Shown: one piece after another, positions 16,167-55,000 of the stretch
Numbering within the stretch: the first letter of the stretch is position 1
Layout of the letters: each line of letters opens with the position of its first letter
Virus record (IMG/VR): IMGVR_UViG_3300031867_000069
Strand: one strand, 5' to 3'
DNA from: a virus
DNA length: 57,325 nucleotides
Notes under the pieces: model-generated
Told to the model about the DNA's origin: nothing
The model's database searches: none
Seen by the model: the letters and a program-made list of their open reading frames with translations, nothing else
Position numbers and translations under genes: made by a program

Positions 16167-16182
16167 CATTTGCTATTATGGA
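16154..16182 (+). promoter_or_regulatory. Promoter-like motif TTCGCA-N17-TATGGA
   Basis: ttcgcatgaataacatttgctattatgga. It overlaps the 3' end of the remnant ORF. Confidence 0.5.
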
Positions 16183-16613: not shown

Positions 16614-16631
16614 ACAAAAAGGTTCAAGATT

Positions 16632-16665
16632 AGAGGTTATGTAAACTCATAGCCTCTTTTCTTTT
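16632..16665 (+). terminator. Rho-independent terminator
   Basis: 10-bp stem (agaggttatg / catagcctct, one G-U pair), then a T-run. Confidence 0.7.
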
Positions 16666-16695
16666 GCTAATAAACTCTTAAAGGAGACGAGACCG

Positions 16696-16827
16696 ATGAG
16701 ATCAGTAAAAAGATTTTTGAAACGTCAGTCTCCAACAGTAACAGTACGACAAATAATGTGGGCTTTAAAAATGAAGCCTATTAAAAAAGAAAAATGGGAA
16801 ACTTGTTTCGATAGGAGAGATATTTAA
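16696..16827 (+). CDS. Small basic protein (43 aa), below the ORF-track cutoff
   Basis: SD AAGGAGA. Product MRSVKRFLKRQSPTVTVRQIMWALKMKPIKKEKWETCFDRRDI. Confidence 0.45.
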   Translation: MRSVKRFLKRQSPTVTVRQIMWALKMKPIKKEKWETCFDRRDI

Positions 16828-16856
16828 TTCGCGCATTTTACAACTTGTATTATGAA
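16828..16856 (+). promoter_or_regulatory. Promoter-like motif TTCGCG-N17-TATGAA
   Basis: It starts immediately after the TAA stop. 34 nt (16825-16858) are identical to 18023-18056. Confidence 0.6.
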
Positions 16857-16892
16857 GATATTGGTTATTACCGAAAGGAGGATTGATTAGCT

Positions 16893-16958
16893 ATGCTCAT
16901 TGTTGGCCTAATATTGATAGCTATAGGATGTTTTCTAGTTGGTAAAGCATTATCTTAA
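16893..16958 (+). CDS. Tiny hydrophobic peptide (21 aa)
   Basis: SD AAAGGAGG. Product MLIVGLILIAIGCFLVGKALS. It has its own motif upstream and its own terminator. Confidence 0.4.
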   Translation: MLIVGLILIAIGCFLVGKALS

Positions 16959-16964
16959 CGAGTC

Positions 16965-16990
16965 AGGGGACCAAACCGGTCCTCTTACTT
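16965..16990 (+). terminator. Rho-independent terminator
   Basis: Stem aggggacc / ggtcctct, then a T-rich tail. Confidence 0.65.
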
Positions 16991-17019
16991 TTCGCGAATA
17001 TTGCATAGCATATTATGAA
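16991..17019 (+). promoter_or_regulatory. Promoter-like motif TTCGCG-N17-TATGAA
   Basis: ttcgcgaatattgcatagcatattatgaa, abutting SD AGGAGG. Confidence 0.6.
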
Positions 17020-17033
17020 AGGAGGAAGTTCTT

Positions 17034-17195
17034 ATGAACATTAAACTAGATGCAAGTAAACTTTTAGGTATTGGGACTATCGCTCTTGGGCTAGTATCAA
17101 CAATACTAGCCGGAGTGAAAGAAAACAACGACAAAAAAGTTTTAAAAAGCGAAATCACAGATGAAGTTCTTAAAAACTTAAAAACCAAAGAATAG
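17034..17195 (+). CDS. Small membrane protein (53 aa), below the ORF-track cutoff
   Basis: Product MNIKLDASKLLGIGTIALGLVSTILAGVKENNDKKVLKSEITDEVLKNLKTKE. Confidence 0.55.
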   Translation: MNIKLDASKLLGIGTIALGLVSTILAGVKENNDKKVLKSEITDEVLKNLKTKE

Positions 17196-17196
17196 G

Positions 17197-17225
17197 AGGG
17201 GATCAACAGATCCTCTTTTATTTTT
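17197..17225 (+). terminator. Rho-independent terminator
   Basis: Stem aggggatc / gatcctct, loop aaca, then a T-run. Confidence 0.7.
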
Positions 17226-17251
17226 GCTCATTATGAAAGGAGAAATTAAAA

Positions 17252-21891: not shown

Positions 21892-24800
21892 ATGATTGAT
21901 TTTTTAATGATTTCCACACGTAGTCCGAAACGTGGAATTATAGAAATCTATCCTAAATTCATTATTAAAGAAACTTCTGATCTAATGATTAGAGGTGGTG
22001 ATTTTTATGCAGTTTGGATAGACGAATTAGGTTTATGGTCCACTAGAGAACAAGATGCTTTACAACTTATAGACCACGAATTAAAAAAATACACTGAAGA
22101 AAACAAAAGTAAATTCGATGGACTTGTAAAGACTCTTTATATGTGGGATGCAGAATCAGGCATGATTGACCGATGGCATAAATATTGTCAAAAGCAAATG
22201 AGAGACAATTATGTCATGCTTGATGAAAAACTTATATTCTCTAATACTAAGACCACTAAAAAAGACTACGCTAGTAAAAGATTAAGCTATCCTCTTGAAT
22301 CGGGCGACTTCCCCGCATATGAAAAGATAATGTCTACTTTATATTCTCCAGAAGAACGTCATAAAATAGAATGGGCTATAGGTTCTATTGTTACTGGAGA
22401 TAGTAAAACTATACAAAAATTCATGGTTCTTTACGGAGCTGCTGGTACAGGTAAATCAACAATATTGAATATTATCCAACAATTATTTGAAGGATATTAT
22501 TCGGTATTCGACGCCAAAGCTTTAGGATCATCTACCAATGCCTTTGCATTGGAAGCATTTAAAAATAATCCTTTAGTAGGCATTCAACATGACGGTGACT
22601 TATCAAGAATCGAAGATAATACTAGGCTTAATAGTTTGGTTTCTCACGAACTTATGACGGTTAATGAGAAATTTAAGAGCACTTATTCCAATAGGTTTAA
22701 GTGCTTTCTTTTTATGGGCACTAATAAACCTGTAAAAATTACAGACGGTAAATCTGGTTTACTTCGAAGATTAATTGATGTTACTCCATCTGGTAATAAA
22801 CTTAGTTTTCGAGAATACAACACTGCTATAAAGCAGGTGCCATTTGAGCTGGGGTTTATTGCCAACCATTGCAAAGAAGTATATTTGAGCGATCCAGCTA
22901 AGTACGACGATTATATTCCTATTTCAATGATGGGAGCTTCGAACGATTTCTATAACTTTATTATAGATTCATACCATATATTCAAGAAGGAAAATGGAAC
23001 TACTCTAAAGCAAGCATGGGCTTTGTATAACACATATTGTGAAGAGGCTAGAGTTCCATATCCATTCTCGAAAAGGAGTTTTAAAGAGGAACTAAAAAAC
23101 TACTTCTGGGATTTCAAAGAAAGATTTATATCCGAAGATGGTTCCAGAGTACGAAGTTATTATGTTGGTTTTAGAACCGATAAATTTGAAGATGAAAAAA
23201 ATCCGGAGGGCAAAAATGATAAAAACAAAGTAAATCTTATCAGTTTCAAAGAACAGCCATCTATATTTGATACTTATTGTGCGGATTGCATTGCTCAATA
23301 TTCAACTCCGAATGAAATTCCGAACCAACCTTGGGATAAAGTAACAACTAAACTTTCAGACATCAACACATCAAAACTTCACTTCGTTAAAGTGCCTTTG
23401 AATCATATTGTCATTGACTTTGATATTAAAGGACCAGATGGTAAAAAGAGTTTTGAACGAAACTTAGAAGCGGCTAGTAAATGGCCTGCTACTTATGCTG
23501 AACTAAGTAAGTCTGGAGCAGGAATTCATCTTCATTATATTTATAGTGGAGATCCAACGAAATTAAGTAGTGTGTATGATGAGAACATTGAAGTTAAAGT
23601 ATTCAAAGGTAAATCTTCTCTTAGAAGAAGATTAACTAAATGCAATGACTTGTCAATAACTACTATTACGTCTGGATTACCTTTGAAAGGAGATACCAAA
23701 ATGATAAACAGGGAGGCTGTTAAAACCGAAAAAGGTATTCGTACTTTAATCAAGCGAAACCTCAATAAGGAATACCATCCTGGGACAAAACCAAGCATCG
23801 ACTTCATTTATAAGATATTAGAAGATGCTTACAATCAAGGACTTAAATATGATGTGTCCGATATGAAAAATGCAGTAATTGCTTTTGCCGCTGGCAGTAC
23901 ACATAAAGCCGATTATTGTTTGAGGCTTGTTGGCAAGATGAAATTTAAATCAGAAGAACAGTCCAAAGTTAAGGATGAAGACAAGACTTTAGTATTCTAT
24001 GATATTGAAGTCTTTCCTAATCTATTCTTAGTCAACTGGAAAGCAGCCGGCAAAGGAAAACCTGTTGTGAGAATGATTAATCCTTCTTCAGAAGAAATTG
24101 AAGACCTATTAAAGTTCAGACTTATAGGTTTCAATTGTCGTAGATACGATAATCATATTTTGTATGCTCGTTTAATGGGTTATACAAATGAACAGCTATA
24201 TAATCTATCACAAAAGATTATATCTGGTGATCGTAATGCATTCTTTGGCGAAGCTTACAATCTATCCTATACGGATGTTTATGACTTTTGTGCGAAAAAG
24301 CAATCCCTTAAAAAATGGGAAATCGAACTAGGTATTCATCATAAAGAATTAGGATTGCCTTGGGATCAACCTGTTCCAGAAGATATGTGGATTAAGGTGG
24401 CAGAATATTGCGATAATGATGTTATTGCTACTGAAGCCGTATTCGATACTAGACAGTCAGACTTTGTTGCTAGAGAAGTTCTAGCTGATGTGGCAGGAAT
24501 GACTGTTAACGATACAACTAACAGTCTTACAACTAGAATTATATTTGGTAAGAATAAGAAACCTCAATCTTCATTTAACTATAGAGACATGGGTGACATG
24601 TCTATACCTCATCAAAAATTCATAATAACAAAGGATATGGATTTATATCCTAATGATGAATTTGATGATTTTACAATATTTGATGAAGAAAATCGTCCTT
24701 TATTTCCGGGTTATAAATATGAAGCCGGAAAATCAACATATCGCGGTGAGGAAATCGGCGAAGGAGGTTATGTATATGCCGAACCAGGCATGTACAAAAA

Positions 24801-25842
24801 TATTGCCTTACTTGATATTGCTAGTATGCACCCTAGCAGTATTGTAGCAGAGAGACTATTCGGTGATTACACTGATAGATTTCAAGATATTTTGAATGCC
24901 CGTATTGCCATTAAGCATAAAGACTTTGAAAAAGCAAGAACCATGCTTAATGGTGCTTTGGCGAAGTATCTAACCAATGAAGAATCTGCAGCAGATCTAG
25001 CTCAAGCGCTAAAGATTGCCATAAATTCAGTTTATGGATTAACCTCAGCGCGATTCGATAATCCTTTTAGGGATATTCGAAATAAGGACAATATAGTTGC
25101 AAAACGTGGAGCTTTGTTCATGGTAAACCTTAAACATGAGGTTCAAAAAAGAGGATTTACAGTGGCACACATTAAAACGGATTCAATTAAAATTCCTGAT
25201 GCCACACCCGAAATCATTCAGTTTGTCATGGATTATGGCAAAATGTATGGTTATAATTTCGAGCATGAAGCCACTTATGACAGAATGTGCCTAGTCAACG
25301 ATGCTGTATATATTGCCAAATACGATAATGGTGAATGGACCGCTACAGGTACTCAATTCCAAGTGCCATATGTATTCAAAACTCTATTTTCACATGAACC
25401 AATTGAATTCAAAGACATGTGTGAAACAAAGTCAGTATCAAAAGGTGATTTATATTTGGATATGAACGAAAAACTTCCAGAAGACGAACACAATTATATT
25501 TTCGTCGGACGAGTTGGTAGTTTCTGTCCAATTAAGCCTGAACATAATGGCGGCATTCTATATCGTGTTAATGATGGCAAGTATTATGCAGCTGCCGGAA
25601 CAAAGGGTTACCGTTGGTTAGAAGCGGAAACCGTTAAGGTTCTAGAAAAAGAAGATTCCATTGATAGAACTTATTACGAAGCTTTAGTTCATGATGCAGT
25701 TACTGATATTTCGAAGTATGGCGATTTTGATTGGTTTGTTAATGGCTCAACTAAGATTCAGGAATCTGATTCTAATGATATTCCACCTTGGGAAGTCGAT
25801 CCTAGAATGGTTCTTCCTGATGACACATTTGATAAAAGATAA
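21892..25842 (+). CDS. Fusion replicase: P-loop (SF3/D5-like) helicase + AEP primase-polymerase + family B DNA polymerase with 3'-5' exonuclease (1316 aa)
   Basis: Helicase Walker A is VLYGAAGTGKST. The archaeo-eukaryotic primase (AEP) motifs are VIDFDIK and AGIHLHYIY. The exonuclease motifs are ExoI FYDIEV, ExoII FNCRRYDNHIL and ExoIII YCDNDVIATE. The PolB motifs are A LLDIASMHPSS, B KIAINSVYGL and C HIKTDSIKI. Confidence 0.85.
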   Translation: MIDFLMISTRSPKRGIIEIYPKFIIKETSDLMIRGGDFYAVWIDELGLWSTREQDALQLIDHELKKYTEENKSKFDGLVKTLYMWDAESGMIDRWHKYCQKQMRDNYVMLDEKLIFSNTKTTKKDYASKRLSYPLESGDFPAYEKIMSTLYSPEERHKIEWAIGSIVTGDSKTIQKFMVLYGAAGTGKSTILNIIQQLFEGYYSVFDAKALGSSTNAFALEAFKNNPLVGIQHDGDLSRIEDNTRLNSLVSHELMTVNEKFKSTYSNRFKCFLFMGTNKPVKITDGKSGLLRRLIDVTPSGNKLSFREYNTAIKQVPFELGFIANHCKEVYLSDPAKYDDYIPISMMGASNDFYNFIIDSYHIFKKENGTTLKQAWALYNTYCEEARVPYPFSKRSFKEELKNYFWDFKERFISEDGSRVRSYYVGFRTDKFEDEKNPEGKNDKNKVNLISFKEQPSIFDTYCADCIAQYSTPNEIPNQPWDKVTTKLSDINTSKLHFVKVPLNHIVIDFDIKGPDGKKSFERNLEAASKWPATYAELSKSGAGIHLHYIYSGDPTKLSSVYDENIEVKVFKGKSSLRRRLTKCNDLSITTITSGLPLKGDTKMINREAVKTEKGIRTLIKRNLNKEYHPGTKPSIDFIYKILEDAYNQGLKYDVSDMKNAVIAFAAGSTHKADYCLRLVGKMKFKSEEQSKVKDEDKTLVFYDIEVFPNLFLVNWKAAGKGKPVVRMINPSSEEIEDLLKFRLIGFNCRRYDNHILYARLMGYTNEQLYNLSQKIISGDRNAFFGEAYNLSYTDVYDFCAKKQSLKKWEIELGIHHKELGLPWDQPVPEDMWIKVAEYCDNDVIATEAVFDTRQSDFVAREVLADVAGMTVNDTTNSLTTRIIFGKNKKPQSSFNYRDMGDMSIPHQKFIITKDMDLYPNDEFDDFTIFDEENRPLFPGYKYEAGKSTYRGEEIGEGGYVYAEPGMYKNIALLDIASMHPSSIVAERLFGDYTDRFQDILNARIAIKHKDFEKARTMLNGALAKYLTNEESAADLAQALKIAINSVYGLTSARFDNPFRDIRNKDNIVAKRGALFMVNLKHEVQKRGFTVAHIKTDSIKIPDATPEIIQFVMDYGKMYGYNFEHEATYDRMCLVNDAVYIAKYDNGEWTATGTQFQVPYVFKTLFSHEPIEFKDMCETKSVSKGDLYLDMNEKLPEDEHNYIFVGRVGSFCPIKPEHNGGILYRVNDGKYYAAAGTKGYRWLEAETVKVLEKEDSIDRTYYEALVHDAVTDISKYGDFDWFVNGSTKIQESDSNDIPPWEVDPRMVLPDDTFDKR

Positions 25843-30003: not shown

Positions 30004-30041
30004 AAGGTGTCTGAAACATGGCACCTTATTCTTTTATTTTT
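30004..30041 (+). terminator. Rho-independent terminator
   Basis: 8-bp stem (aaggtgtc / ggcacctt), then attcttttattttt. Confidence 0.65.
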
Positions 30042-30056
30042 GAAAGGAGAATTTAC

Positions 30057-30932
30057 ATGAGCAAAAAATATGAATTCACGGGAGAAACTAAAACGATGCA
30101 GGATGGCAATATTTTGCATAGAATCATAGCTTGTAAAACATTCGGAAATGTAAAATCCGGAGAACTCGGCGGATGGATCGAAAACGAAAATAATTTGAGT
30201 CATGAAGGAAATGCTTGGGTTTCTGAAAATGCTAGTGTTTATGGAAATGCTAAGGTTTCTGGAAATGCTGAGATTTCTGGAGATGCTAGAGTTTATGGTG
30301 ATGCTGAGATTTTTGGAGATGCTGAGATTTCTGGAGATTCTTGGGTTTCTGGAAATGCTAAGGTTTCTGGAAATGCTGAGATTTCTGGTGATTCTTGGGT
30401 TTTTGGAAATGCTGAGATTTCTGGAAATGCTGAGATTTCTGGAAATGCTAGTGTTTATGGAGATTCTGGGGTTTATGGTGATGCTAAGATTTCTGGAGAT
30501 GCTAAGATTTCTGGAGATGCTGAGATTTCTGGTGATTCTTGGGTTTATGGTGATGCTAGGGTTTATGGTTATTCTTGGGTTTATGGAAATGCTAGGGTTT
30601 ATGGTGATGCTAGGGTTTCTGGAAATGCTATAGTTTATGGAGATGCTAGAGTTTTTGGAAACGCTTGGGTTTTTGGAAATGCTGAGATTTCTGGAAATGC
30701 TGAGATTTCTGGAGATGCTGATTATGCAACAATCAAAGGATTTGGAACTAACTTTAGAAATACTACTTTCTTTAAGTGTTCCGACGGATCTATAAAGGTC
30801 AATTGCGGTTGTTTCTATGGAACTTTAAAAGAGTTTAGAAAACAGGTAAATAAAACTAGATCTGGAAAAATCAGAAAAGAATATCTTATGATTGCAGATC
30901 TAATGGAAATGCATTTTTCAAATAAAACTTAG
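30057..30932 (+). CDS. Hexapeptide-repeat (left-handed beta-helix type) protein of unknown function (291 aa)
   Basis: SD AAAGGAGAA lies before ATG 30057. There are 28 consecutive G-[ND]-[AS]-x-[VI]-x hexads. The C-terminal domain contains a GCFYGTLKEF motif. Confidence 0.75.
   Translation: MSKKYEFTGETKTMQDGNILHRIIACKTFGNVKSGELGGWIENENNLSHEGNAWVSENASVYGNAKVSGNAEISGDARVYGDAEIFGDAEISGDSWVSGNAKVSGNAEISGDSWVFGNAEISGNAEISGNASVYGDSGVYGDAKISGDAKISGDAEISGDSWVYGDARVYGYSWVYGNARVYGDARVSGNAIVYGDARVFGNAWVFGNAEISGNAEISGDADYATIKGFGTNFRNTTFFKCSDGSIKVNCGCFYGTLKEFRKQVNKTRSGKIRKEYLMIADLMEMHFSNKT
30207..30719 (+). repeat. 18-bp tandem repeat array (about 28.5 units, consensus ggaaatgctgagatttct)
   Basis: Read directly from the sequence. 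It encodes the hexapeptide repeats. Confidence 0.9.
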
Positions 30933-32557: not shown

Positions 32558-32834
32558 AAATAGACTTGTGAAGACAAATGACACATGAATTTGCGGTTTG
32601 TATATTTTATACAAATTGAGAGAAGTGAGAAACCTGATATCGGATCATAGGAAAATGAGACTATGTGAACATAGCAAGTTCTATTCTTTTTTATTTTTGA
32701 AACGAACCTGTAGAGGCTATCCCCTATGCCTTCTGGGCGGGGGAGTAGGGCTACTATTGATACGTAGCTGGATTTTAGGAAACGAAGTCCATGAAAACCG
32801 AAATGGTGTCCTATTGTTTTGAATTTGTGTGTGA

Positions 32835-33421
32835 AAAAAATTATGGTGGACTTATATTTATAATAACGAACATGATTCGTATATCTATAAAGGTCCTTAT
32901 AGTATTGATTTGATGTATCAAAAACGTGATAAATTCGATGGGAATATTTATGAGCATAATTTAAGAACAAAGAAAGATATAAAGGCTGCTAGTGAAGATA
33001 CCTTAATAGAGGAGTTTGATACCTTTTATAAGAAAAACAAAAATGATATAGATAATCTTTTACGTCCTGGTTTTGATAATTTAATGAATACTCCGTATGC
33101 TAAATTAACAAAGGACGGCGTTACATATAAAGATGTGGCTGGAAATTCAAGAAATCTGCAAAACAATATAAGTATGCGGAAAAATTTGTAAATAGATTAA
33201 AGGAACAGAAATATTCCGCTATCGAAGATATGAATAATAAAGGTTCGTATTATAATTCTATAAGTCCTGTTGTCATTCTTGATGGCAAACAATATTTATC
33301 AGAAACCGGAATATCTTCTTTACCAGCAAGTCATGTTTATGCATACGGTAATTACGTTATGAATGTATTAGGTTACAAAAACGAGCAAGCCGGTTATCGT
33401 AATATCATAAAACAATTTTAA
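32835..33421 (+). pseudogene. Frame-disrupted intronic ORF (possible decayed homing-endonuclease gene)
   Basis: Two overlapping frames (32835/32913..33191 and 33131..33421) sit between the P7 5' and 3' strands. There is no SD. I see no LAGLIDADG, GIY-YIG or HNH motif. Confidence 0.3.
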
Positions 33422-34894: not shown

Positions 34895-35321
34895 AACACT
34901 AAGAGAAAAAGCAAAAGCATGTAACAGCAACATTCAAGATCTTATCAACAAGTTAACCGATATTCAAAAGGATATCAGTGAGTATGTGAATAAGAGTAAT
35001 GCAATCGATGCTTTAGAGGAATTAAATATGCCTATTAATCCGATGATAGCTTTTCAATTAATTCAAATTCAAGTTAAGATGTTATGCGACAGTACAGCAT
35101 TGGGAGAACATTTGGACACAGTAGTAAACAGTCTGCAAACTGTCGCTAATGCCTTTAACAAAGACATGTTTGGCGACAACAATAAGCATACAAATCTTAA
35201 TGATATTCCTAAAGATGCTGTTCAATTGAAAGGAAAAATCGGAACTGTTGATAGCTTCCTCACTGATATTGAAGCTATAATGAAAATGATGGAAGATGAA
35301 GAAGGTGAGAACAATGAATAA
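34878..35321 (+). CDS. Hypothetical protein (147 aa)
   Basis: SD GGAAGGAG. Confidence 0.6.
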   Translation: MTNKNETLREKAKACNSNIQDLINKLTDIQKDISEYVNKSNAIDALEELNMPINPMIAFQLIQIQVKMLCDSTALGEHLDTVVNSLQTVANAFNKDMFGDNNKHTNLNDIPKDAVQLKGKIGTVDSFLTDIEAIMKMMEDEEGENNE

Positions 35322-35511
35322 TTCGGATAAATTCAACGGTTCGGGCTGTGTTGATTTAACGGCATATGAAGCCATTAAAAACATTGAAGACGAAGAAGTT
35401 CGCTTTAAAAAGCTCTTACATACTATTAAATATATTTGCGATATTGCAGACTTCGAAATCTGTGGTCGCATTGTACTTAGAGACAGAAAGTCTGAAAGGA
35501 CTTGGAGGTAA
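35314..35511 (+). CDS. Hypothetical protein (65 aa)
   Basis: ATG 35314 overlaps the upstream stop. Confidence 0.5.
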   Translation: MNNSDKFNGSGCVDLTAYEAIKNIEDEEVRFKKLLHTIKYICDIADFEICGRIVLRDRKSERTWR

Positions 35512-35518: not shown

Positions 35519-35866
35519 ATGGTTGTAAAAAAGATGGGCAATAAGATATTTGGAGCTGAGTTAACTCGTAATGAGCAAAAGGCTTTAGATATTGAGATTA
35601 AGAAACAATTGGCCGAATATGACCGTAAGAATATGATGGAGATGGACTCTATTATATTGTGGATCCTTCATTCCATGTATGGACTCGGCGAGAAAAGGCT
35701 TAGAGCATTTTATGATAATTTCCATACAGAGCTTGAAGCTTTAGCTGATCGTTATGAAATGGATGATGAAGACGCATATTTATGTACCGAAAATCTAAGA
35801 CGAATTGGCATTGATGTTGAAAAATGGCATCAAGAAAAAGCCGAAAGATTATCAAAAGAGTTATAA
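35519..35866 (+). CDS. Hypothetical protein (115 aa)
   Basis: SD GGAGG lies before ATG 35519. The track start 35366 lacks an SD and overlaps the previous gene. Confidence 0.6.
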   Translation: MVVKKMGNKIFGAELTRNEQKALDIEIKKQLAEYDRKNMMEMDSIILWILHSMYGLGEKRLRAFYDNFHTELEALADRYEMDDEDAYLCTENLRRIGIDVEKWHQEKAERLSKEL

Positions 35867-35881
35867 TTTTTTGAAATAATT

Positions 35882-35916
35882 GGGCTAGTTTTAATAACTA
35901 GTCCTTTTATTTTTCC
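35882..35916 (+). terminator. Rho-independent terminator
   Basis: Stem gggctagtt / aactagtcc, then ttttattttt. Confidence 0.75.
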
Positions 35917-35941
35917 ATTTTTGAGGATGTTTTTAGTGTTT

Positions 35942-36129
35942 ATGCCCACTTTTGTGGCCAAAAGCCCACTTTATGCCCACTTTTGGCCAATAAAAATGGC
36001 CACAAGAATTGTCCAATTTGGGTCATTTTTGGTCGTTTTTGGGGTAAAAAAGGGCATTTTTGGGGTATTTTGTGGTGTTTTTTCACATTTTTTGAGAATT
36101 TTTAAGGTTTGTGGCCAAAAGCCCACTTT
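35942..36129. repeat. Short direct repeats (iteron-like): ATGCCCACTTTTG x2 and TTTGTGGCCAAAAGCCCACTTT x2, plus multiple TGGCCA
   Basis: The 13-mer is at 35942 and 35973. The 22-mer is at 35951 and 36108. TGGCCA occurs about 7 times between 35955 and 36249. Confidence 0.85.
36021..36110. repeat. Nine helically phased T4-6 tracts (10-nt period), predicted bent DNA
   Basis: ggtcattttt ggtcgttttt ggggtaaaaa agggcatttt tggggtattt tgtggtgttt tttcacattt tttgagaatt tttaaggttt. Confidence 0.8.
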
Positions 36130-36196
36130 TATTTTAATTTATTTAAGAAAAAAGTATATATATTTAAAAAGAATTGACAAAAAAAAACGGGTTTTT

Positions 36197-36302
36197 GGCC
36201 ACAGGCATATTTTAGGGTCGAATAAGGTTGAAAATGTGCATTTGGCCACAGGCATATTTTAGGGTCGAATAAGGTTGAAAATGTGCATTTGGCTATATTT
36301 TT
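36197..36302. repeat. Perfect 47-bp tandem repeat, 2 full units plus a partial third
   Basis: ggccacaggcatattttagggtcgaataaggttgaaaatgtgcattt occurs at 36197-36243 and 36244-36290, followed by ggctatattttt. Confidence 0.9.
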
Positions 36303-36315
36303 CAATTTTTTAAAA

Positions 36316-36344
36316 TTCGCGTGAAAAACATGCCCTTTTATGAA
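36316..36344 (+). promoter_or_regulatory. Promoter-like motif TTCGCG-N17-TATGAA heading the nuclease / RNA polymerase operon
   Basis: ttcgcgtgaaaaacatgcccttttatgaa. Confidence 0.6.
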
Positions 36345-36424
36345 GGGAAGTACAAATATGTCGTATTTTTACGGTGTATCATTTCCTTTTGAGTTTTGTT
36401 TAAGATGAAAGGAGAGAGCATTTA

Positions 36425-36721
36425 ATGGCAAAACTAGAAAGTATATTTCAAAAAGAATTGATGGATGAAATTAGGGAACGTTATCCTGGGTGTGTTATTA
36501 TCAAGAATGATCCGAATTATATTCAAGGATTTCCAGATTGGACAATTCTGTATAAAGACAAATGGGCTGTTATAGAAGCAAAGCGCAGTGCATCTGCTAA
36601 ACATCAGCCTAATCAAGACTTTTATGTAAAAAAGCTCAACGATATGTCTTATGCAGCTTTTGCATATCCTGAGAATAAGGAGGTTATATTACGTGAAATT
36701 CAATCAGCATTTAAATCTTGA
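36425..36721 (+). CDS. VRR-NUC-type PD-(D/E)XK nuclease (98 aa)
   Basis: Contains GFPDWTILYKDKWAVIEAKRS....QPNQDFYVKKLND (the G.PD...E.K...Q pattern). SD AAAGGAGAG. Confidence 0.6.
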   Translation: MAKLESIFQKELMDEIRERYPGCVIIKNDPNYIQGFPDWTILYKDKWAVIEAKRSASAKHQPNQDFYVKKLNDMSYAAFAYPENKEVILREIQSAFKS

Positions 36722-37250
36722 AGGATTGCATGCACCATTTAGTGCCAGTCAAAACTCTTGGCTAAGATATGATGACGGCAAAGCAATGGAAGTATACAAA
36801 AATAAAAAAGCGGCATTGATAGGAACCAAATTACATCAATGGGCAAAAGAAACTATAGATTTGGGCATAAAGCAACCTAGATCCAAGAAGACCTTATATT
36901 CGTATGTAAACGATGCTATAGGGTACCAAATGGATACTGAGGTTGTTTTATTTCATTCAGAAAGATTTTTCGGAACAGCAGATGCTATTTGTTTTAGAAA
37001 TGGTGTTTTGAGAATTCATGATCTAAAGACAGGGAAAACACCAGTACATATGGAGCAGCTAGAAATATATGCAGCTCTTTTTTGTTTGGAATACAGAACC
37101 AAACCTGGCGAAATAAAAATGGAGTTACGAATATATCAGAATGATGAAGTACTAGTTCATAAGCCAACTGCTGAGGATATTCTCCCTATTATGGATAAAA
37201 TAATACATTTGGATAATTTGTTATCAAAGATTGATCAAGAAGGAGAATAG
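36693..37250 (+). CDS. RecB/Cas4-like PD-(D/E)XK nuclease (185 aa), GTG start
   Basis: SD AAGGAGG lies 7 nt before GTG 36693. Contains FGTADAICF...LRIHDLKTGK...QLEIYAALF. Confidence 0.6.
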   Translation: MKFNQHLNLEGLHAPFSASQNSWLRYDDGKAMEVYKNKKAALIGTKLHQWAKETIDLGIKQPRSKKTLYSYVNDAIGYQMDTEVVLFHSERFFGTADAICFRNGVLRIHDLKTGKTPVHMEQLEIYAALFCLEYRTKPGEIKMELRIYQNDEVLVHKPTAEDILPIMDKIIHLDNLLSKIDQEGE

Positions 37251-37253
37251 TGT

Positions 37254-40088
37254 ATGAACAATATCATAAAAGATATGGATGAACATGTGCTAATGCATTA
37301 CGGAATGCCTAAACGTTCTGGACGATATCCTTGGGGAAGTGGTGATAATCCATATCAGCGTACAGGCGATTTTATGGGTAGAGTTGACGAGCTAAGAAAA
37401 CAGAATTTTACTTATACTGATGAAAAAGGAAAAGTTTGGACAGGCGATACTGCTATTGCCAAATCTATGGGTTTGTCAACAACTCAATTTAGAACCGAAT
37501 ATTCTATTGCTAAAAACGAACGTAGACTCTATCAAGTAAATACTGCTAAAGCGTTGCAGAAAGATGGACTCGGTGCTACAGAAATCGGTAGAAAAATGGG
37601 TATACCAGAATCATCAGTTAGATCCTTATTGAATGCAAAATCCGAAACAAAAATGAATCAGGCTAAAGAAACAGCTAAATTCATAAAAGAGCAGATTGAT
37701 AAAAAAGGAATGATTGATGTTGGTACTGGTGTTGAAAGAGAACTAAACATATCTAAGGAAAAACTTAATCAGGCCTTATATTTACTCGAAAGAGAAGGCT
37801 ATCCTATATATAAAGGCGGCATTCCCCAAGTAACAAACATAGGTAATCAAACAAATCAAAAGATTATTTGTAAACCTGGTACAGAACATAAAGAAATTTA
37901 TGATTTTGACAAGGTTCATGCTCTTAATGAGGATAACTATATTTCTAGAGATGACGGTAAAACTTTCGAAAAGAAATTCCATTATCCAGAAAGTATGGAT
38001 TCAAAACGTCTTATGATTAGATACAAAGAGGACGGCGGCATCGATAAAGATGGTGTTGCAGAAATTAGACCAGGTGTTGACGATCTTTCACTTGGCGAAT
38101 CTCGATATTCTCAGGTTCGTATAATGGTTGATGGTAAAAAATACATAAAAGGTATGGCTGTATATGGCGATCCTAAAGATTTTCCTAAAGGTGTTGACGT
38201 TATATTTAACACTAACAAATCAAAGTCTGTATCTAAACTAGATGTTCTTAAAGATATTAAGAGCGATCCAGATAATCCATTTGGTTCTTTAATTAAAGAC
38301 GCTACACAAGGCGGTCAATATTGGTATACGGATTCTAAGACCGGAAAGAAGAAGCTTGGACTTATTAATAAGACAAGAGAAGAAGGCGATTGGGATGATT
38401 GGAAAGATGCTCTGCCTTCACAGTTCTTAGCTAAGCAGCCTATACAAATGATTAAGAAACAATTAAAGTTAGCAGTTGCTGATAAGGAAGCAGAATATGC
38501 TGATATTATGTCTATTAATAATCCTACTATTAAGAAATATTATCTTAATAAGTTTGCGGATGAATGTGATTCGACGGCTGTACATTTAAAAGCAGCCGCA
38601 TTACCAGGACAAAAGTATCACGTTATTATTCCTAATAATACGCTTAAAGAGAATGAAGTGTATGCGCCGGGCTATGCTTCAGGCACAAAGCTTGCTTTAA
38701 TAAGATATCCACATGGTGGAACATTTGAGATTCCTATATGTACAGTAAACAATAAGAATGCATTAGGTAAAAAACTTATAGGTACAACTCCTATAGATGC
38801 TGTATGTATTAATTCTAGAGTTGCTGAAAGATTATCAGGAGCGGATTTTGATGGCGATACGGTTATGTGCATTCCAACCCATGATCGTCAAGGAAAAGTT
38901 AAGATTACTTCTACTCCTCCTTTGAAAGGTCTAGAAGGTTTTGACCCAAAGATGGCCTATCCAGAACGTCCAGGTATGCAGTATATGAAAAATCCTAAGA
39001 CTGGAAGTGATAGCACTCCAGTGCAAATGGGAATGATTTCGAATCTTATAACCGATATGACTTTACTTGGCGCTACCTCTGATGAATTGGCTGCTGCCGT
39101 ACGTCACAGTATGGTAGTTATTGATGCTGGTAAGCACAAGCTGGACTATAAGCAGAGCGAGATAGATAACAACATAGCCGCTCTAAAGAAAAAGTATCAA
39201 GTGGGTGGCGCTTCTACTTTAATGTCTAGGGCTAAAGGTGAGTATGATGTACCCAAAAGGCAGGGTAATCCCCGTGTCAATTTAAAGGGCAAAACATATT
39301 ATGACCCTACCCGTCCCGAGGGAGCCCTAGTATATAAGACGGCAGACGACGCCAAATGGATACAAACAAAAGTCAATAAACGTACTGGAGAAGTAAAAAA
39401 AGTTGAGAGGATTCGTACTCAGAAGAGTACCAATATGGCAGAGACGGATGACGCATATACCCTAGTGTCTAAATTTAACACCCCTAAGGAGAGAGCCTAT
39501 GCCGACTATGCCAATAAAATGAAATCAATGGCTAACCAGGCCCGTATAGAAGCATCTAATTCGGGCAAAATAGCCTATTCAAGATTGGCAAAAGCAGAAT
39601 ATCAAAAAGAAGTAGATTCTTTGAATGCAAAATTAAACAAAGCTTTACTTAATTCTCCTAGAGAACGTCAAGCTCAACGTATGTCTAACGCTGAAATGAA
39701 TATAAAAAAGAGAGCCTATTATGATGAAACGGGCGCAAAGATGAAAACTAAGGATATAAAGAAAGCCAGTCAGCAAGCAATATCAAAGTATCGTGATGAA
39801 GTAGGCTCTGTATCTAGAAGAAACCGTTCTATTACTATAGATGATAGAGAATGGGAAGCTATTCAAAAGGGTGCAATAAGCGAAAGCGTGCTTAATAAGA
39901 TACTGAATAATAGTGATCCTGACAAACTAAGAGAAAGAGCAACACCTAAAACTTCTAAAGGTTTAAACACTGCTAAAGTAAACAGAATCAAAGCTTTGTC
40001 TGCTTCTAATTACACATTAGAACAAATCGCTAACAAACTTGGTATTTCAACTTCAACAGTTGCTAAGTATTTGAAAGGAGGAAATTAA
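37254..40088 (+). CDS. YonO / RdRP-like two-barrel single-subunit RNA polymerase candidate with flanking HTH domains (944 aa)
   Basis: The core motifs are ALIRYPHGGTFEIP (R484), then LSGADFDGDTVMCIPTHD (D531-D535, nt 38844-38858), then GMISNLITD...AAAVRHSMVVIDAGKHKLDYK. The HTH segments are GATEIGRKMGIPESSVRSLL near the N-terminus and YTLEQIANKLGISTSTVAKYLKGG at the C-terminus. Confidence 0.6.
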   Translation: MNNIIKDMDEHVLMHYGMPKRSGRYPWGSGDNPYQRTGDFMGRVDELRKQNFTYTDEKGKVWTGDTAIAKSMGLSTTQFRTEYSIAKNERRLYQVNTAKALQKDGLGATEIGRKMGIPESSVRSLLNAKSETKMNQAKETAKFIKEQIDKKGMIDVGTGVERELNISKEKLNQALYLLEREGYPIYKGGIPQVTNIGNQTNQKIICKPGTEHKEIYDFDKVHALNEDNYISRDDGKTFEKKFHYPESMDSKRLMIRYKEDGGIDKDGVAEIRPGVDDLSLGESRYSQVRIMVDGKKYIKGMAVYGDPKDFPKGVDVIFNTNKSKSVSKLDVLKDIKSDPDNPFGSLIKDATQGGQYWYTDSKTGKKKLGLINKTREEGDWDDWKDALPSQFLAKQPIQMIKKQLKLAVADKEAEYADIMSINNPTIKKYYLNKFADECDSTAVHLKAAALPGQKYHVIIPNNTLKENEVYAPGYASGTKLALIRYPHGGTFEIPICTVNNKNALGKKLIGTTPIDAVCINSRVAERLSGADFDGDTVMCIPTHDRQGKVKITSTPPLKGLEGFDPKMAYPERPGMQYMKNPKTGSDSTPVQMGMISNLITDMTLLGATSDELAAAVRHSMVVIDAGKHKLDYKQSEIDNNIAALKKKYQVGGASTLMSRAKGEYDVPKRQGNPRVNLKGKTYYDPTRPEGALVYKTADDAKWIQTKVNKRTGEVKKVERIRTQKSTNMAETDDAYTLVSKFNTPKERAYADYANKMKSMANQARIEASNSGKIAYSRLAKAEYQKEVDSLNAKLNKALLNSPRERQAQRMSNAEMNIKKRAYYDETGAKMKTKDIKKASQQAISKYRDEVGSVSRRNRSITIDDREWEAIQKGAISESVLNKILNNSDPDKLRERATPKTSKGLNTAKVNRIKALSASNYTLEQIANKLGISTSTVAKYLKGGN

Positions 40089-40091
40089 CAA

Positions 40092-40373
40092 TTGAATAAT
40101 GATTATGATGAAAACTATTCTATTGAAAAGAATTACATGTTAACAACAGTTGACAATCCTTTTGATCCTTTTGAGCAATTTGTTTCTTGGTTCATGTTCG
40201 ACACTGAAAAAGGTTATAATACTTGTTCTACTTTAGCAAGGATAGCGAATATTTCAGATGATATGTCTCAAAAAGAAGTAATCGATGAAACGAATAGAGC
40301 TATCGATGAAATAATAAAGTATGACTTTTTAGACATATATAAAAAAGTAGAACGAGATAATATCAATTCATAA
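40092..40373 (+). CDS. Hypothetical conserved phage protein (93 aa), TTG start
   Basis: SD AAAGGAGG lies 11 nt before TTG 40092. Contains TVDNPFDPFEQFVSWFMFDTEKGYNTCSTLARIA. Confidence 0.5.
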   Translation: MNNDYDENYSIEKNYMLTTVDNPFDPFEQFVSWFMFDTEKGYNTCSTLARIANISDDMSQKEVIDETNRAIDEIIKYDFLDIYKKVERDNINS

Positions 40374-40398
40374 CCATATCCATATTATTTTATACATA

Positions 40399-40462
40399 GG
40401 GGGGGTGTCGAAAATTACACCCCCTCCCCACATCGCCGCCCTCCTCGAAAATTCCCCGGGGG
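40399..40462. other. GC-rich island with hairpin and palindrome (candidate cos / packaging site)
   Basis: A G7 run is followed by the stem GGGGGTGT (40401-08) / ACACCCCC (40417-24). TCGAAAATT occurs twice (40408 and 40445). CCCCGGGG lies at 40454-61. The island is unique within an otherwise AT-rich genome. Confidence 0.45.
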
Positions 40463-40490
40463 ATATTTTTGAAAAAACTTTTTGTTGGAG

Positions 40491-40623
40491 CTAGTGTTCC
40501 AAGGAGCGTATGAGTTTTATATTTTTCTAGTCCACAATCATTACGTTGCATTCTTTAAATGAAATATATTCTCCTTTCAAATATTAAGTTCTTATATGGC
40601 TCATACGTTCCTTAGAATACTAG
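40491..40623. repeat. 24-nt imperfect inverted repeat (21/24) separated by 85 nt
   Basis: ctagtgttccaaggagcgtatgag (40491-40514) pairs with ctcatacgttccttagaatactag (40600-40623). As + strand RNA, two of the mismatches become G-U pairs and one is a C-A mismatch. Confidence 0.8.
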
Positions 40624-40695
40624 CCTAAAAGTATACACAAAGCGATAAAAACATATTTGTTTGTGTGTCTAAATAGCAGAAAGGAGATAAAAAGC

Positions 40696-42359: not shown

Positions 42360-42374
42360 AGGACGGTGAGATTA

Positions 42375-43046
42375 ATGAATGATGAACTTTATCATCACGG
42401 TATCAAAGGTATGAAATGGGGCGTTCGTAGATATCAGAATAAAGACGGTAGTTTGACTCCTAGAGGAAAAAAGAAATATGGAACTAGAGAGAATTTTGAA
42501 AGGCACTTGGCCTCTAAAAAATTTAAAAAGAGTTCTCATAAACTTTCTGGTATAGAGAAGAAAAAGCCTATAAAGTCGGCTAAGGATATGACCGATGATG
42601 AATTAAAAAGTAGGATCAATCGTCTTCAAATGGAAAGGCAATATCTTGATTTAAATAAACAGATTTCTTCTTTAACTCCTAAAAAAGTGTCGAAAGGAGA
42701 ACAGTTCATCAAAGCAATCGGTAAAGACGTTATAGCTCCAGTTGCCAAAAATATTGGCAAACAATATTTGGAAAAAGCATTAAAGAAAAATCTAGGATTG
42801 GATATAAAAGATACTTTGGAAGGTCTAGAAAAAGAAGCAAAGAAATTAAGACTAAAAAAAGAAATAAATGATCTAAAGAATCCTAAAAAAGACTATAAAG
42901 ATGAATTTGTTAAGAATTGGAACAAACATAAAAGATGGAAAAAAGCAGTTGAAGAATATGAAAATGAAGCTGCTGATGATTTTGTAAATAGTAATGCTGA
43001 TTCCGGAAAGCAATATGTAGAAACAGCTTTGGCTATACGTAAATAG
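42375..43046 (+). CDS. Lys-rich protein with N-terminal LYHHGIKGMKWGVRR motif (223 aa)
   Basis: Shares a 53-bp exact DNA segment with 44839..45414. It sits immediately upstream of terL. Confidence 0.65.
   Translation: MNDELYHHGIKGMKWGVRRYQNKDGSLTPRGKKKYGTRENFERHLASKKFKKSSHKLSGIEKKKPIKSAKDMTDDELKSRINRLQMERQYLDLNKQISSLTPKKVSKGEQFIKAIGKDVIAPVAKNIGKQYLEKALKKNLGLDIKDTLEGLEKEAKKLRLKKEINDLKNPKKDYKDEFVKNWNKHKRWKKAVEEYENEAADDFVNSNADSGKQYVETALAIRK
42379..42431 (+). repeat. 53-bp exact direct repeat, copy 1
   Basis: atgatgaactttatcatcacggtatcaaaggtatgaaatggggcgttcgtaga, identical to 44867-44919. Confidence 0.95.
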
Positions 43047-44838: not shown

Positions 44839-45414
44839 ATGACTAATTACATTATAAAAACAAAGGATGATGAACTTTATCATCACGGTATCAAAGGTAT
44901 GAAATGGGGCGTTCGTAGACAACAGAAAAAACAGGCAAAGAAAGATTTTGCAAACATGCCAAGTAAGAAGAAAGGCCCAGTTGATATTGGTAATTCCGCA
45001 GCACGAAGTTATTTTAAGTCGCAAAATCTTATAAGAAAGGCTGATAAAACTAGAAGTTTTGCCAAGTATAGGAAATTAAATAAAAAAGCCCATCGTTTGC
45101 AAAAAATAGCAGATAGAAAAACAGGTCAATTAAACGAGGCGCAAGTTAAAGCCGGTCGCTATAGAATCGCTAGAAATAGAAACTATAGAAGAACAGCTTT
45201 ATCCGCTGTTATAGGAACAGCAGCTGGAGTAGCTGCTATGGGACTTGGTGCAGCAGCATTGGGCGTTCCTATTGCTGGTGCGGCATACATTACAAGTAGA
45301 TATGCTAGTGGTGGTAGACGATATCGAAGAGAACAGATTAGTTATAAGAAGTTTGCAACAAAAGAAAGCAAGCCGATAAAGAAAAATAAATCTAAATCTA
45401 AATCTAGTAAATAA
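44839..45414 (+). CDS. Basic protein with N-terminal LYHHGIKGMKWGVRR motif and C-terminal Gly/Ala-rich hydrophobic segment (191 aa)
   Basis: SD AAGGAGG. Hydrophobic segment ALSAVIGTAAGVAAMGLGAAALGVPIAGAAYI. It lies between terL and the portal gene. Confidence 0.65.
   Translation: MTNYIIKTKDDELYHHGIKGMKWGVRRQQKKQAKKDFANMPSKKKGPVDIGNSAARSYFKSQNLIRKADKTRSFAKYRKLNKKAHRLQKIADRKTGQLNEAQVKAGRYRIARNRNYRRTALSAVIGTAAGVAAMGLGAAALGVPIAGAAYITSRYASGGRRYRREQISYKKFATKESKPIKKNKSKSKSSK
44867..44919 (+). repeat. 53-bp exact direct repeat, copy 2
   Basis: Identical to 42379-42431. Confidence 0.95.
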
Positions 45415-51673: not shown

Positions 51674-52051
51674 ATGATTAGTTTCAGACAAAAGGGAGAT
51701 TTCTCTAAATTAACAAGATTTTTGGAAAGAGCAAAAGAGGTTACACACCTTGGCGTTCTCGACAAGTATGGTAAAGAGGGAGTGGCAGCCCTTTCGTCTG
51801 CAACGCCTCATGATACCGGAAAAACTGCTGAATCATGGTATTACGAAATAGAGAATAAAAATGGCTCAGCGACCATTTCATTTTGCAATTCAAATATTCA
51901 AAATGGAGTTAATATAGCAATAATATTGCAATATGGACATGCCACTAAAGGCGGAGGATGGGTTCAGGGAAAAGATTACATCAACCCTGCAATCCGTCCT
52001 ATTTTTGATAAAATCGCAGAAGATGCTTGGAAGGAGGTCTCTAAATTATGA
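51674..52051 (+). CDS. HK97 gp10-family tail-component protein (125 aa)
   Basis: Contains ...ATPHDTGKTAESW...ILQYGH. ATGA overlap with the TMP start. Confidence 0.5.
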   Translation: MISFRQKGDFSKLTRFLERAKEVTHLGVLDKYGKEGVAALSSATPHDTGKTAESWYYEIENKNGSATISFCNSNIQNGVNIAIILQYGHATKGGGWVQGKDYINPAIRPIFDKIAEDAWKEVSKL

Positions 52052-55000
52052 GCAAAACAATAGACGAAAGAGTTGTTGAAATGCGATTCGACAATAAACA
52101 ATTTGAATCAAATGTTAATCAAACGATGTCGACTCTAGATAAATTTAAACAAAAGTTGAATCTGTCTGGAGCATCCAAAGGGCTCGAAGAAGTTGGTCGT
52201 AGTGCAAAGAACGTTGATGTTTCTTCTATTAGCTCTGGTTTAGACTCCGTTAAAGCCAAATTTTCAGCATTACAAGTTATGGGCGTTACCGCCTTAGCTA
52301 ATATAACTAATTCGGCAGTAAATGCTGGTAAAAGACTTGTATCGGCTTTTACCATCGATCCTGTTAAATCTGGCTTCGAAGAATATGAAACTCAGATAAA
52401 TTCTGTCCAAACCATTTTGGCCAATACCCAAAAAGAAGGAACAAAAATAGGCGATGTAAATAAAGCTCTCGATGAGTTGAATCTATATGCTGATAAAACT
52501 ATCTATAATTTTACTGAAATGACTAGAAACATAGGTACATTTACAGCTGCCGGGGTTAAGTTGAAAACATCAGTATCATCAATACAAGGTATAGCTAACC
52601 TTGCCGCGGTATCAGGTTCGAACGCTCAGCAAGCTTCTACTGCAATGTATCAGCTTTCTCAGGCTCTTGCTGCCGGTAAAGTTCAGCTTATGGACTGGAA
52701 ATCAGTAGAAAATGCTGGTATGGGCGGTCAAGTTTTTCAAGATGCTTTAAAGAAAACCGCTAAAGAACATGGAGTAGCAGTAGATGAGATCATAAAGAAA
52801 AGTGGATCTTTTAGAGAAAGTTTGCAAAAAGGCTGGATAACATCAAAAATACTTACCGAAACTCTTGGCAAAATGACAAAATCCGGTGCTGCCGAATACT
52901 TGGCAAAATTAACCGGAGTAACTCAAAAAGAAATTACAGCTGCTCAAAAAGCGGTAGAAACCAATAAAGATGGATCTGCTTCTTACGACAAGTTAGCTGA
53001 AAAAATGGCTAAATCCGGAAAGATAACTAAAAAGGAAGCTCTAGAAACTTTAAAAATGGCCGATACTGCTGAAGACGCAGCTACCAAAGTTAAGACTTTT
53101 TCACAGTTAATGGACACCTTAAAGGAAGCTGCTCAATCCGGTTGGTCACAAACTTGGAGAATATTAGTAGGCGACTTTGAAGAAGCAAAAGATTTATTTA
53201 CTCCTCTTAATGATTTCTTTAGTGGAATTATTAATAACATATCCAATGCTAGAAATGCAATGCTTAAAAGCGCTTTAGGTAAAAGTTTTAAAAAACTAGG
53301 TGAAGAAATTACAGCTATAACGAAGCATATAAAGAAAACCGCGGATGGCGTTAAGGAAGCTTCTAAAAGTTTAGAAAAATATGGTGAGATTGTAAACCAA
53401 ATAATTAGAGGCGACTGGGGTAACGGACAAGAAAGATTTGATAAGCTTACAAAGGCCGGTTATGATTGGGCTCATGCGCAGAATTTGGTAAATGAGAAAT
53501 TAGGTGATTCTACTCGTTATGAAACCAAATATGCAGAAGCTAAGAATAAATCGTCAAAGGTGCAAGGAGATTCCGCAAAGTCACAATCAAAAAATTTGGA
53601 AGCTCTTACTAAAATGTCTGATGCTGAATTGAAGCATATTGGTCTTAATGATAAGGAAATAAAATCTCTTAGACAATTAAAAAAAGAAGCTGATAAAGTT
53701 GGAATGTCAGTTTCTAATTTTAGTGCTAACATAGACAATATCAATGGTAGATGGCTTATATTTGACTCTTTTAAGACAATAGGTAAAAGTCTCGTTAAAG
53801 TGTTGCATTCAGTGAAAGATGCATGGGACGAAGTATTTCATGGAACTACCGATAACAATAAAATTGCTAATCAAAGAGCAAAAAGTTTGTATAATCTTAT
53901 AGCTGCTTTCCATAAGTTATCGATGAAACTAAAAGTTAACGATGAGACGGCCGATAAGATAAAGCGTACATTTAAAGGTTTATTTGCTATCATAAAACTA
54001 ATCACATCGATAACTGGTGGCACTTTTAAGACTGTTTTTACAGTAGCTCAAAATGTATTGGGAGCATTTAATCTTGATATTTTGGATGTTACAGCTTCTG
54101 TTGGTGATGTCCTTGTTAAATTTAGCGATTGGGTTTCGCAAAATAGTCTATTAACAAAAGCTATTAAGTTTTTAACCCCTTATATTACAATTGCCGTAAA
54201 AGCTGTTAAAGACTGGATAAATGCTATTATTGAATCCGGTGTAGCTCAAAAAGTATTTGATGGTTTTGTTAGTTTTTTAAAATCGGCATTCAGTAGTATA
54301 AAAGGGTGGATAATAGCAATTAAAGACTCCGAAATTGCACAAAACATTATTTCTGGTTTGGTCAACGGACTTAAAACCGGAGCTAGTTCAGCATGGGATG
54401 CAATCGTTTGGTTAGGCACTACTTTGCTTGAAAAGATAAAAGCCATTCTAGGTATTCATTCTCCATCTACCGAATTCTTTGAAATTGGTGGAAATATTAT
54501 TTCAGGTTTATTTAATGGGTTGAAAAATGGAGCATCATGGATTTACGATTTCATAACTGATCTCGGCTCAAAAATAATAAACATAGTCAAAAATTTAGAT
54601 ATCGGAACCGTTATAGCTGGCATATTAGCTGGTGGTATGTTTGTTGGTATTAAAAAATCTTTTGATTTTATAGAACTTATTTCCGAACCATTGCATGGAT
54701 TGAATAAAATATTTGATTCCGTTGCCGGAGTAATAAAAGCATCACAAAAAGGTATTGCTAAGTCATTAAAAGGTTTAGCCAAAACTTTTAAAGCATTTGC
54801 GTTTAAAATGCGTATGGATGCTATAAAAGATTTAGTGATATCAGTAACAATTTTAATAGCAGCTTTGATTGTTTTAGCGCATCAAGATACTGATAAACTG
54901 TGGGATGCAGTAGGTGTACTAGGCGCAGTCGTTGGCATGTTAGCCGCTTTGGTAGTCATCACTGAAGTATGTACTAAAAGCTCAACTAAAATAGATGCAG

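Follow-up and report, generated by a model that had tools for sequence, protein, structure and literature searches.

The DNA analysed here is the virus record IMGVR_UViG_3300031867_000069 of IMG/VR (57,325 nt; the whole of this stretch is called the window), and the element in question, the hub, is a non-coding stretch of ~450 bp that lies inside the intergenic region 35867-36424, between two genes of the + strand. Every gene of the 57.3-kb window is carried on one strand, and the tape-measure gene is interrupted by the window ends (52048-57325 exits and 1-1576 resumes), so the window is read as a circularly permuted complete phage genome of ~57.3 kb. As placed by its polymerase, the phage belongs to the supercluster of Lactococcus phage 1706, Faecalibacterium phage FP_oengus and the AM-AU-BI actinophages, which was described by Koert et al. 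(bioRxiv 10.1101/842583); among isolated phages, DNA similarity was found with FP_oengus alone, as a weak match. The hub lies between the intrinsic terminator of the upstream operon and a promoter-like element, as had been proposed in a preliminary description of the window, and upstream of an operon that is its presumed target (Table 1). The products of this operon are a 98-aa (amino acids) PD-(D/E)XK-like endonuclease (start 36425), a 199-aa exonuclease, a 944-aa polymerase and a 93-aa protein. The 944-aa protein (37254-40088) carries the GADFDGD catalytic loop of two-barrel RNA polymerases, together with an N-terminal helix-turn-helix (HTH) domain and a C-terminal HTH domain that resembles sigma-70 region 4, and by these features it is a YonO-like single-subunit RNA polymerase. 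In most actinophage records, this polymerase is annotated merely as 'HTH DNA-binding protein'.

The hub had been described as the only large non-coding gap outside the packaging region, which did not hold: with + strand open reading frames (ORFs) of at least 50 aa, further ORF-free stretches were found at 15706-16169, 16614-17251 and 32564-33229. The ORF 35921-36262, previously dismissed as an artefact of the repeats, was indeed not kept in relatives; its sole hits, in the related locus L084, lie on both strands and thus reflect similarity at the DNA level. The window gave zero Rfam matches at gathering score and zero tRNA or tmRNA.

Table 1. Features of the hub and its surroundings in window coordinates, and box types found in related loci.
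Feature	Position	Strand	Remarks
Intrinsic terminator of upstream operon	35882-35914	+	9-bp stem, T-run; left border of hub
Distal box array	35942-36004		GCCCAC at 35944, 35964, 35975; composite GTGGCCAAAAGCCCAC at 35954-35969; TGGCCA/GGCCAC variants at 35984, 35997-36003
Phased T tracts and one A6 tract	36017-36106		period ~10.4 bp; predicted intrinsically bent DNA
Core-proximal composite box	36108-36129		second copy of 22-mer; includes palindrome GTGGCCAAAAGCCCAC
A+T-rich core, 61 bp	36127-36187		from CCCAC to inverted box; almost free of G and C
Core-proximal inverted box AAAACGGGTTTTTGGCCACA	36184-36203		degenerate AAAAGTGGGCTTTTGGCCAC; inverted partner of 36110-36134
47-bp tandem repeat	36194-36293		2.1 copies, 100% identical; bounded by TTTGGC(C/T)A
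Promoter-like element	36313-36350	+	motif at 36317-36344; heads nuclease/RNA polymerase operon
Downstream operon, presumed hub target	36425-40373	+	four proteins; cos-like genome end next
TCGCG-N17-TATGAA copies	13834, 14131, 14437, 15385, 16829, 16992, 18027, 26352, 28776, 29715, 32193, 36317	+	
Box GGTTGC-N7-GCAACC			L006 group
Box GTAGCAC			L178
Box GGGTGTC			L227
Box GTATTACA			L171 group
Box TTATTGTAAGACA			L201
Box TTACATATATGGTAAG			L248
Box CTTGCA-N6-TGCAAG			L001
Box GTGTTG-N9-CAACAC			L051
Box TGATC-N8-GATCA			L004
Box ATCACGAAAAAACTTCGGGA			phage 1706
GGTTGCCAATTGGCAACC			candidate target of L006-type XRE protein

The layout of the hub, as read from left to right, is distal boxes, predicted bend, palindromic box GTGGCCAAAAGCCCAC, 61-bp A+T core and inverted box. 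The core of the boxes is G(C/G)CCAC, TGGCCAC being a one-mismatch variant of TGCCCAC, and the full site, GTGGCCAAAAGCCCAC, is imperfectly palindromic over 16 bp and occurs twice. All four exact copies of GCCCACTTT in the window fall inside 35944-36129; ATGCCCACTTTTG occurs twice (35942-35954 and 35973-35985), as does the 22-mer TTTGTGGCCAAAAGCCCACTTT (35951-35972 and 36108-36129, 157 bp apart), so both repeat pairs of the preliminary description were recovered. The palindrome TGGCCA is present in 12 copies in the 57 kb of the window, six of them inside 35955-36248; its clustering was confirmed in this way, and the earlier count of about seven is amended to six plus one TGGCTA variant at the hub. 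Seven T4-6 tracts were located over 36026-36103 with start spacings of 10, 21, 11, 10, 10 and 11 nt, the double gap of 21 nt being occupied by the A6 tract. Nine such tracts at exactly 10 nt had been claimed; the phasing proved sound, and the number and period are corrected to seven tracts and a mean of 10.4. The segment 36006-36115 had the top 10-10.5-bp TTT periodicity among 11,445 windows of 100 bp taken over the whole stretch. DNA stability was calculated as a nearest-neighbour estimate, that is, as a thermodynamic prediction, and by this measure the stability minimum of the window falls on the 40-mer that begins at 36130 (dG -36.7, compared with a mean of -49.6 and a standard deviation of 3.4). 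The core is framed by inverted arms of 25 nt (36110-36134 and 36179-36203) that are 84% complementary. The repeats, the phasing and the melting minimum are real and far beyond chance.

The preliminary description had also counted a perfect 47-bp tandem duplication with a partial third unit among the parts of the device. The duplication itself is present (Table 1) and contributes one extra TTTGGCCACAGGC box. A single 47-bp unit was found in two near-identical relatives from other samples, and the body of the unit had zero homologs among ~280 related loci, which points to a recent, strain-specific duplication; by this comparison, the 47-bp repeat falls outside the conserved device.

Conservation was assessed in 80 relatives from IMG/VR, with 47-68% identity between their polymerases and that of the window; these loci share ancestry and are not independent samples. 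In most of them, a dense cluster of the same boxes was found upstream of the polymerase gene or operon, with one cluster per locus; in a few relatives, such as L077, no hub was seen. The exact 22-mer TTTGTGGCCAAAAGCCCACTTT was present in five viral contigs, all five with the same operon. All boxes and the core were unchanged in the two near-identical relatives, and the few substitutions lay mostly between boxes. The least stable 40-mer of the locus was located inside the cluster or core in 67 of the 73 loci having a cluster, and the distance from CCCAC to GTGGG was 59-64 bp (mostly 60 or 61 bp) in 50 of 57 unique spacers. The layout in Faecalibacterium phage FP_oengus, upstream of its polymerase gene, is identical, and Arthrobacter phage Correa, with a polymerase 44% identical to that of the window, has the identical 16-mer GTGGCCAAAAGCCCAC, phased A/T tracts, a 62-bp A+T core and the inverted box. 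A matching layout with a different box stands directly before the polymerase gene of Lactococcus phage 1706, the nuclease genes of which are located elsewhere. Similar phased tracts were seen in L009, L047, L058, L066, L006, Correa and phage 1706. The hub is clearly a conserved candidate protein-binding array with predicted bent DNA and an unwinding-prone core, and its architecture, judged from these comparisons, is ancient and spans phages of Firmicutes and Actinobacteria. Of the two roles put forward earlier, replication origin or regulatory hub, the hub or array part is borne out by the conserved layout, and the origin part has been neither shown nor excluded. A description of the repeat element was not found in bioRxiv 10.1101/842583, in the Arthrobacter phage survey PMC5513430 or in the other literature reached by a limited search.

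The boxes differ between relatives on this shared architecture. At least nine box types, assigned by simple patterns, were distinguished (Table 1), and the palindromes of relatives include GTTGC-N7-GCAAC, CTTGCA-N6-TGCAAG and GTGTTG-N9-CAACAC; the GCCCAC type of the window is common to both phyla and therefore appears ancestral. A small regulator gene of the XRE or ribbon-helix-helix (RHH) kind adjoins the hub in most of the swapped types examined. In the L006, L248, L004 and L082 types, this is a Cro/C1-type HTH gene immediately 3' of the hub, with Pfam HTH_26/HTH_3 matches at about 1e-12 (HTH_26, E = 1.6e-12 for the L082 gene); in the L171, L201, L178 and L081-85 types, it is an RHH-like gene immediately 5' of the hub, with a weak RHH_3 match. 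The replicases of the relatives among which the boxes are swapped are 65-75% identical to that of the window, and no box-type-specific change was found in eight core replication proteins (the L006 type was examined for divergence). The replicase was not found on plasmids. Freely exchangeable regulators beside an unchanged replisome fit operators better than initiator iterons. In L081-L085 (L082:9930-10230), L171:11960-12110 and L201:15280-15400, the RHH gene is followed by another repeat, such as ATTTATTGTAATACATTAAAT, in five to seven copies; within L081-L085, the array so formed stands immediately 5' of the GCCCAC-type module, giving two candidate binding arrays in series.

Several candidate box readers were considered and set aside. 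The 37254 protein, that is, the polymerase, had been suggested as a binder and is unlikely in this role: the recognition helices of its two HTH domains show no difference between the GCCCAC, GGTTGC and GTAGCAC types despite the different boxes, they are nearly invariant from gut phages to actinophages, and such substitutions as are specific to a type lie scattered and agree with the phylogeny. The 89-aa HTH protein at 20463, suggested likewise, is unlikely as well, having been found in only three related loci, in a slot of variable accessory genes. A swapped origin-binding domain in the replicase was rejected when the drop of L006 at alignment columns 1020-1080 turned out to be an insertion within the polymerase domain; the seven other core replication proteins showed no outlier for the L006 type. 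Pfam detected no DNA-binding domain in 20 small ORFs except one zinc finger, at 30949. The genes 35296-35511 and 35519-35866 are enriched beside GCCCAC-type hubs (75% versus 14% and 45% versus 0% of loci, respectively) and have few homologs and a narrow distribution; neither of these hub neighbours has a DNA-binding signature or a recognisable fold, and the AlphaFold model of the 35296-35511 product (pLDDT 81) had no informative match in the PDB. One homolog of the 35296-35511 product takes its name from a genome bin of Hominilimicola sp., which hints at the lineage of the host.

The A+T core retains a bipartite motif, (A)TTATGA/TTGCGA-(T)AAAAA ... TATATA(G/A)TAAT, with promoter-like spacing across box types. 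Its retention despite differing boxes argues that the core is more than A+T-rich filler. An inversion of the window core relative to its relatives was considered and discarded, the forward alignment being better in 49 of 49 comparisons. The phage has a separate promoter-like motif, TCGCG-N17-TATGAA (consensus tTCGCG-N3-wwwACA-N7-TTATGAA), with 12 copies in the window where 0.75 would be expected, all on the + strand at 13.8-36.3 kb, in the non-structural half. A 32-nt version of it is conserved in 49 related loci, and the element 36313-36350, which the hub adjoins, is separable from the hub in relatives. In Correa, a variant of the motif precedes the endonuclease gene; in L004:5050-5135 and L051:5020-5100, a tRNA-like sequence was noted by eye, apparently after the conserved motif and before the endonuclease gene. 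At 14-17 kb, each copy of the motif stands after a terminator-like hairpin, which gives small promoter-gene-terminator cassettes. TCGCG-N17-TATGAA may represent the class of promoters that the polymerase recognises through its invariant HTH domains.

The reading favoured here, though held tentatively, is that of an operator-clamped initiation site gating transcription into the nuclease/RNA polymerase operon. The ~9 boxes would be occupied by a DNA-binding protein that is sequence-specific and probably a dimer, with GTGGCCAAAAGCCCAC as its full site; the box sets on either side would clamp the 61-bp A+T core, predicted to be the easiest DNA to melt in the genome; and ~90 bp of bent DNA would return the distal box array onto the core, the whole region folding into a looped or wrapped nucleoprotein complex. 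Such a complex would gate initiation at the core and hence entry into the nuclease/YonO-like RNA polymerase operon, and the same transcription may, on DNA in circular or concatemeric form, run past cos and on to the late genes, given that neither a terminator nor a sigma-70-like promoter was found between that operon and the first structural gene. Protein binding, looping and transcription as the gated event are what we infer from the sequence. A transcription switch is favoured by the palindromic sites that bracket a region of fixed length with a conserved bipartite motif, and by the linkage of the hub to the polymerase gene, which is kept even in phage 1706 with its moved nuclease genes.

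Known looping operators are among the closest parallels to the hub. The lambda OR/OL, TP901-1 OR/OL/OD and gal OE/OI sites are, like those of the hub, palindromic and suited to a dimeric HTH protein; proximal sites bracket the initiation region, as gal OE and OI do around the promoter, and bending brings in distal sites, as would be the case at the hub. The specificity of phage switches is exchangeable between relatives ('immunity' types), as are the hub boxes, and a regulator gene stands beside the sites both in the switches and in relatives of the phage, though none was recognised in this window. The hub further differs from these switches in having at least nine sites over 260 bp, in bracketing 61 bp without a recognisable sigma-70 promoter and in lacking a divergent repressor/cro pair, all genes running one way; phage 1706, at least, is virulent.

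A number of observations weigh against a transcription switch at the core. The sigma-70 scores of 57 unique cores did not exceed those of composition-matched shuffles on either strand, with best matches at inconsistent positions, and sigma-70 promoter scans of L001, L004 and L169 found none; a canonical sigma-70 promoter in the core is accordingly unsupported. The core also differs from the 12-copy motif, and the operon already has the last copy of that motif, 125 bp 3' of the core. No recognisable regulator gene was found beside the hub in the window or in the GCCCAC type. Where relatives carry an XRE gene immediately 3' of the hub, genes on the upstream side could provide its transcript by read-through, and a promoter inside the hub is then not strictly required. 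At least nine boxes and a 61-bp core with hardly any G or C exceed the needs of most operators, and the counts from related loci overstate independence on account of shared ancestry. Finally, its position between a terminator and a promoter-like motif leaves the hub insulated and probably untranscribed, as would be expected for an origin.

A replication origin is a strong rival to this reading, though held to be somewhat less probable. The boxes would act as iterons, the bend would aid wrapping, and the core would be the unwinding element at which the helicase-primase-polymerase (21892-25842) is loaded. The insulated site is in keeping with this, and so are the single-copy cluster of ~9 repeats in both orientations, the intrinsic bend and the repeat-flanked A+T segment, in which the least stable DNA of the genome is found, as in the related loci counted above. 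The core matches neither a sigma-70-like promoter nor the standard motif, and the window yielded neither a second non-coding box cluster nor any other cluster of origin-like repeats. Nor was a dedicated initiator gene recognised there; an SF3-type primase-helicase fusion could use a site of this sort for loading. The lambda ori, SPP1 oriL/oriR and SaPI ori resemble the hub in combining a single-copy cluster of short repeats with a bend and an A+T segment that melts first, and in the SaPI ori two iteron sets flank the A+T region, as at the hub. The repeats of these origins, however, are located within or next to the initiator gene and change in step with the initiator, whereas the nearest replication gene to the hub, the replicase, is 10 kb away. 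In phage 1706, the hub stays with the polymerase gene. The boxes have changed at least nine times among relatives in which the replicase is 65-75% identical and in which no matching change occurs in the eight replication proteins; unlike those of the lambda, SPP1 and SaPI origins, the swaps mostly track XRE or RHH genes, which are typical transcription regulators and not initiators. DnaA boxes (TTWTNCACA) are not enriched, with nine matches in the window against 9.1 expected and one in the hub. The GC skew has no inflection at the hub, though it is uninformative there because all genes are co-oriented.

An unlikely third reading is a loading site or promoter of the YonO-like polymerase itself, or a transcription-primed origin of the T7 kind, with the boxes as a swappable gate. 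The hub invariably precedes the polymerase gene, and core motif, polymerase and HTH domains are all conserved across box types; a sigma-less polymerase may also need easily melted DNA. In SPbeta, YonO reads all late genes as an operon with one start site, and the promoter it uses has yet to be defined (PMC5467207), so no comparison of sequences is possible. Both YonO and the polymerase of this phage are single-subunit two-barrel enzymes associated with a very long co-oriented late operon without recognised internal promoters, the latter polymerase differing in its extra N- and C-terminal HTH domains. The 27-kb structural block of the window holds none of the 12 copies of TCGCG-N17-TATGAA, and neither a + strand sigma-70-like promoter nor a terminator was found from the polymerase operon to the first late/structural gene, so transcription from the polymerase operon may continue across the joined cos. 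Sequence recognition by the polymerase is putative, however, its invariant HTH domains could equally read the invariant TCGCG-N17-TATGAA, and the polymerase was not reported among the annotated structural proteins of phage 1706, for which reason a host-dependent promoter would still be needed for its synthesis.

The primary origin of T7 consists of phage-polymerase promoters next to an A+T-rich region of ~60 bp. A phage RNA polymerase, an A+T segment of ~60 bp and a nearby phage-specific promoter-like motif are thus common to T7 and the hub. At the hub, in contrast, the core is clamped by repeated boxes, which are not known from T7, the polymerase is a two-barrel YonO-like enzyme of an unrelated family, and the sole nearby motif copy (36317-36344) stands 3' of the core, not 5' of it, and is directed away from the core, which is not the arrangement of a T7-type origin. 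In its fullest form, to which we likewise assign a low probability, the core would be the long-sought promoter or loading site, one per genome, of the HTH-flanked YonO-like polymerases, clamped by exchangeable repressor boxes; from it, the polymerase would transcribe both its own operon and, across the joined cos, the 27-kb late block. If so, late expression would depend on circularisation or concatemers, and the opened core might also prime replication.

The cos-like end lies 4.2 kb from the hub. In the gap 40373-40657, a G/C-rich cos-like site was located at ~40395-40465, and many related contigs terminate ~300 bp past the polymerase gene. A long inverted repeat (~40484-40512 and ~40592-40620) was noted by eye in the same gap. 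The distance of 4.2 kb would suit another role in cis (partition, packaging accessory or recombination hotspot), and RHH proteins with short-repeat arrays also serve as plasmid centromere binders. No ParA or ParB gene was recognised among the window proteins scanned, however, and terminase recognition sites normally adjoin cos and are not 4 kb off. Together with the idea of functionless repeats, such roles are very improbable; conservation from phages of Firmicutes to actinophages and invariant boxes among near-identical strains exclude junk DNA.

Two further features of the window were recorded. An in-frame 18-nt/54-nt tandem repeat at 30207-30719 (~28 units, 79% matches) lies inside the ORF 30018-30932 (phrog_7964/5070, function unassigned) of the non-structural region and encodes a hexapeptide-type repeat protein. 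The proteins of 42366-43046 and 44839-45414, which flank the large terminase gene, have a common N-terminal motif, DELYHHGIKGMKWGVRR; three copies of it occur in L084, and it could act as a targeting or processing signal common to these proteins.

With an operator-clamped initiation site still as the favoured reading, the hub is proposed, from its sequence, to act as the master control region, present once per genome, in a phage lineage of ancient origin. This lineage is very common in the human gut, according to protein-pattern scans of IMG/VR (among the matches listed), and spans two bacterial phyla. The hub gives it one unique, deeply conserved cis element beside the gene of its signature YonO-like polymerase, an enzyme without a known promoter, regulator or role. 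The 16-bp GTGGCCAAAAGCCCAC and the 61-bp core make the start of the polymerase, the start of replication and the early-to-late switch testable, and cultivable members are at hand in phage 1706, FP_oengus and the Arthrobacter and Streptomyces phages. The naturally swapped pairs of box and regulator would be ready-made orthogonal operator/repressor parts.

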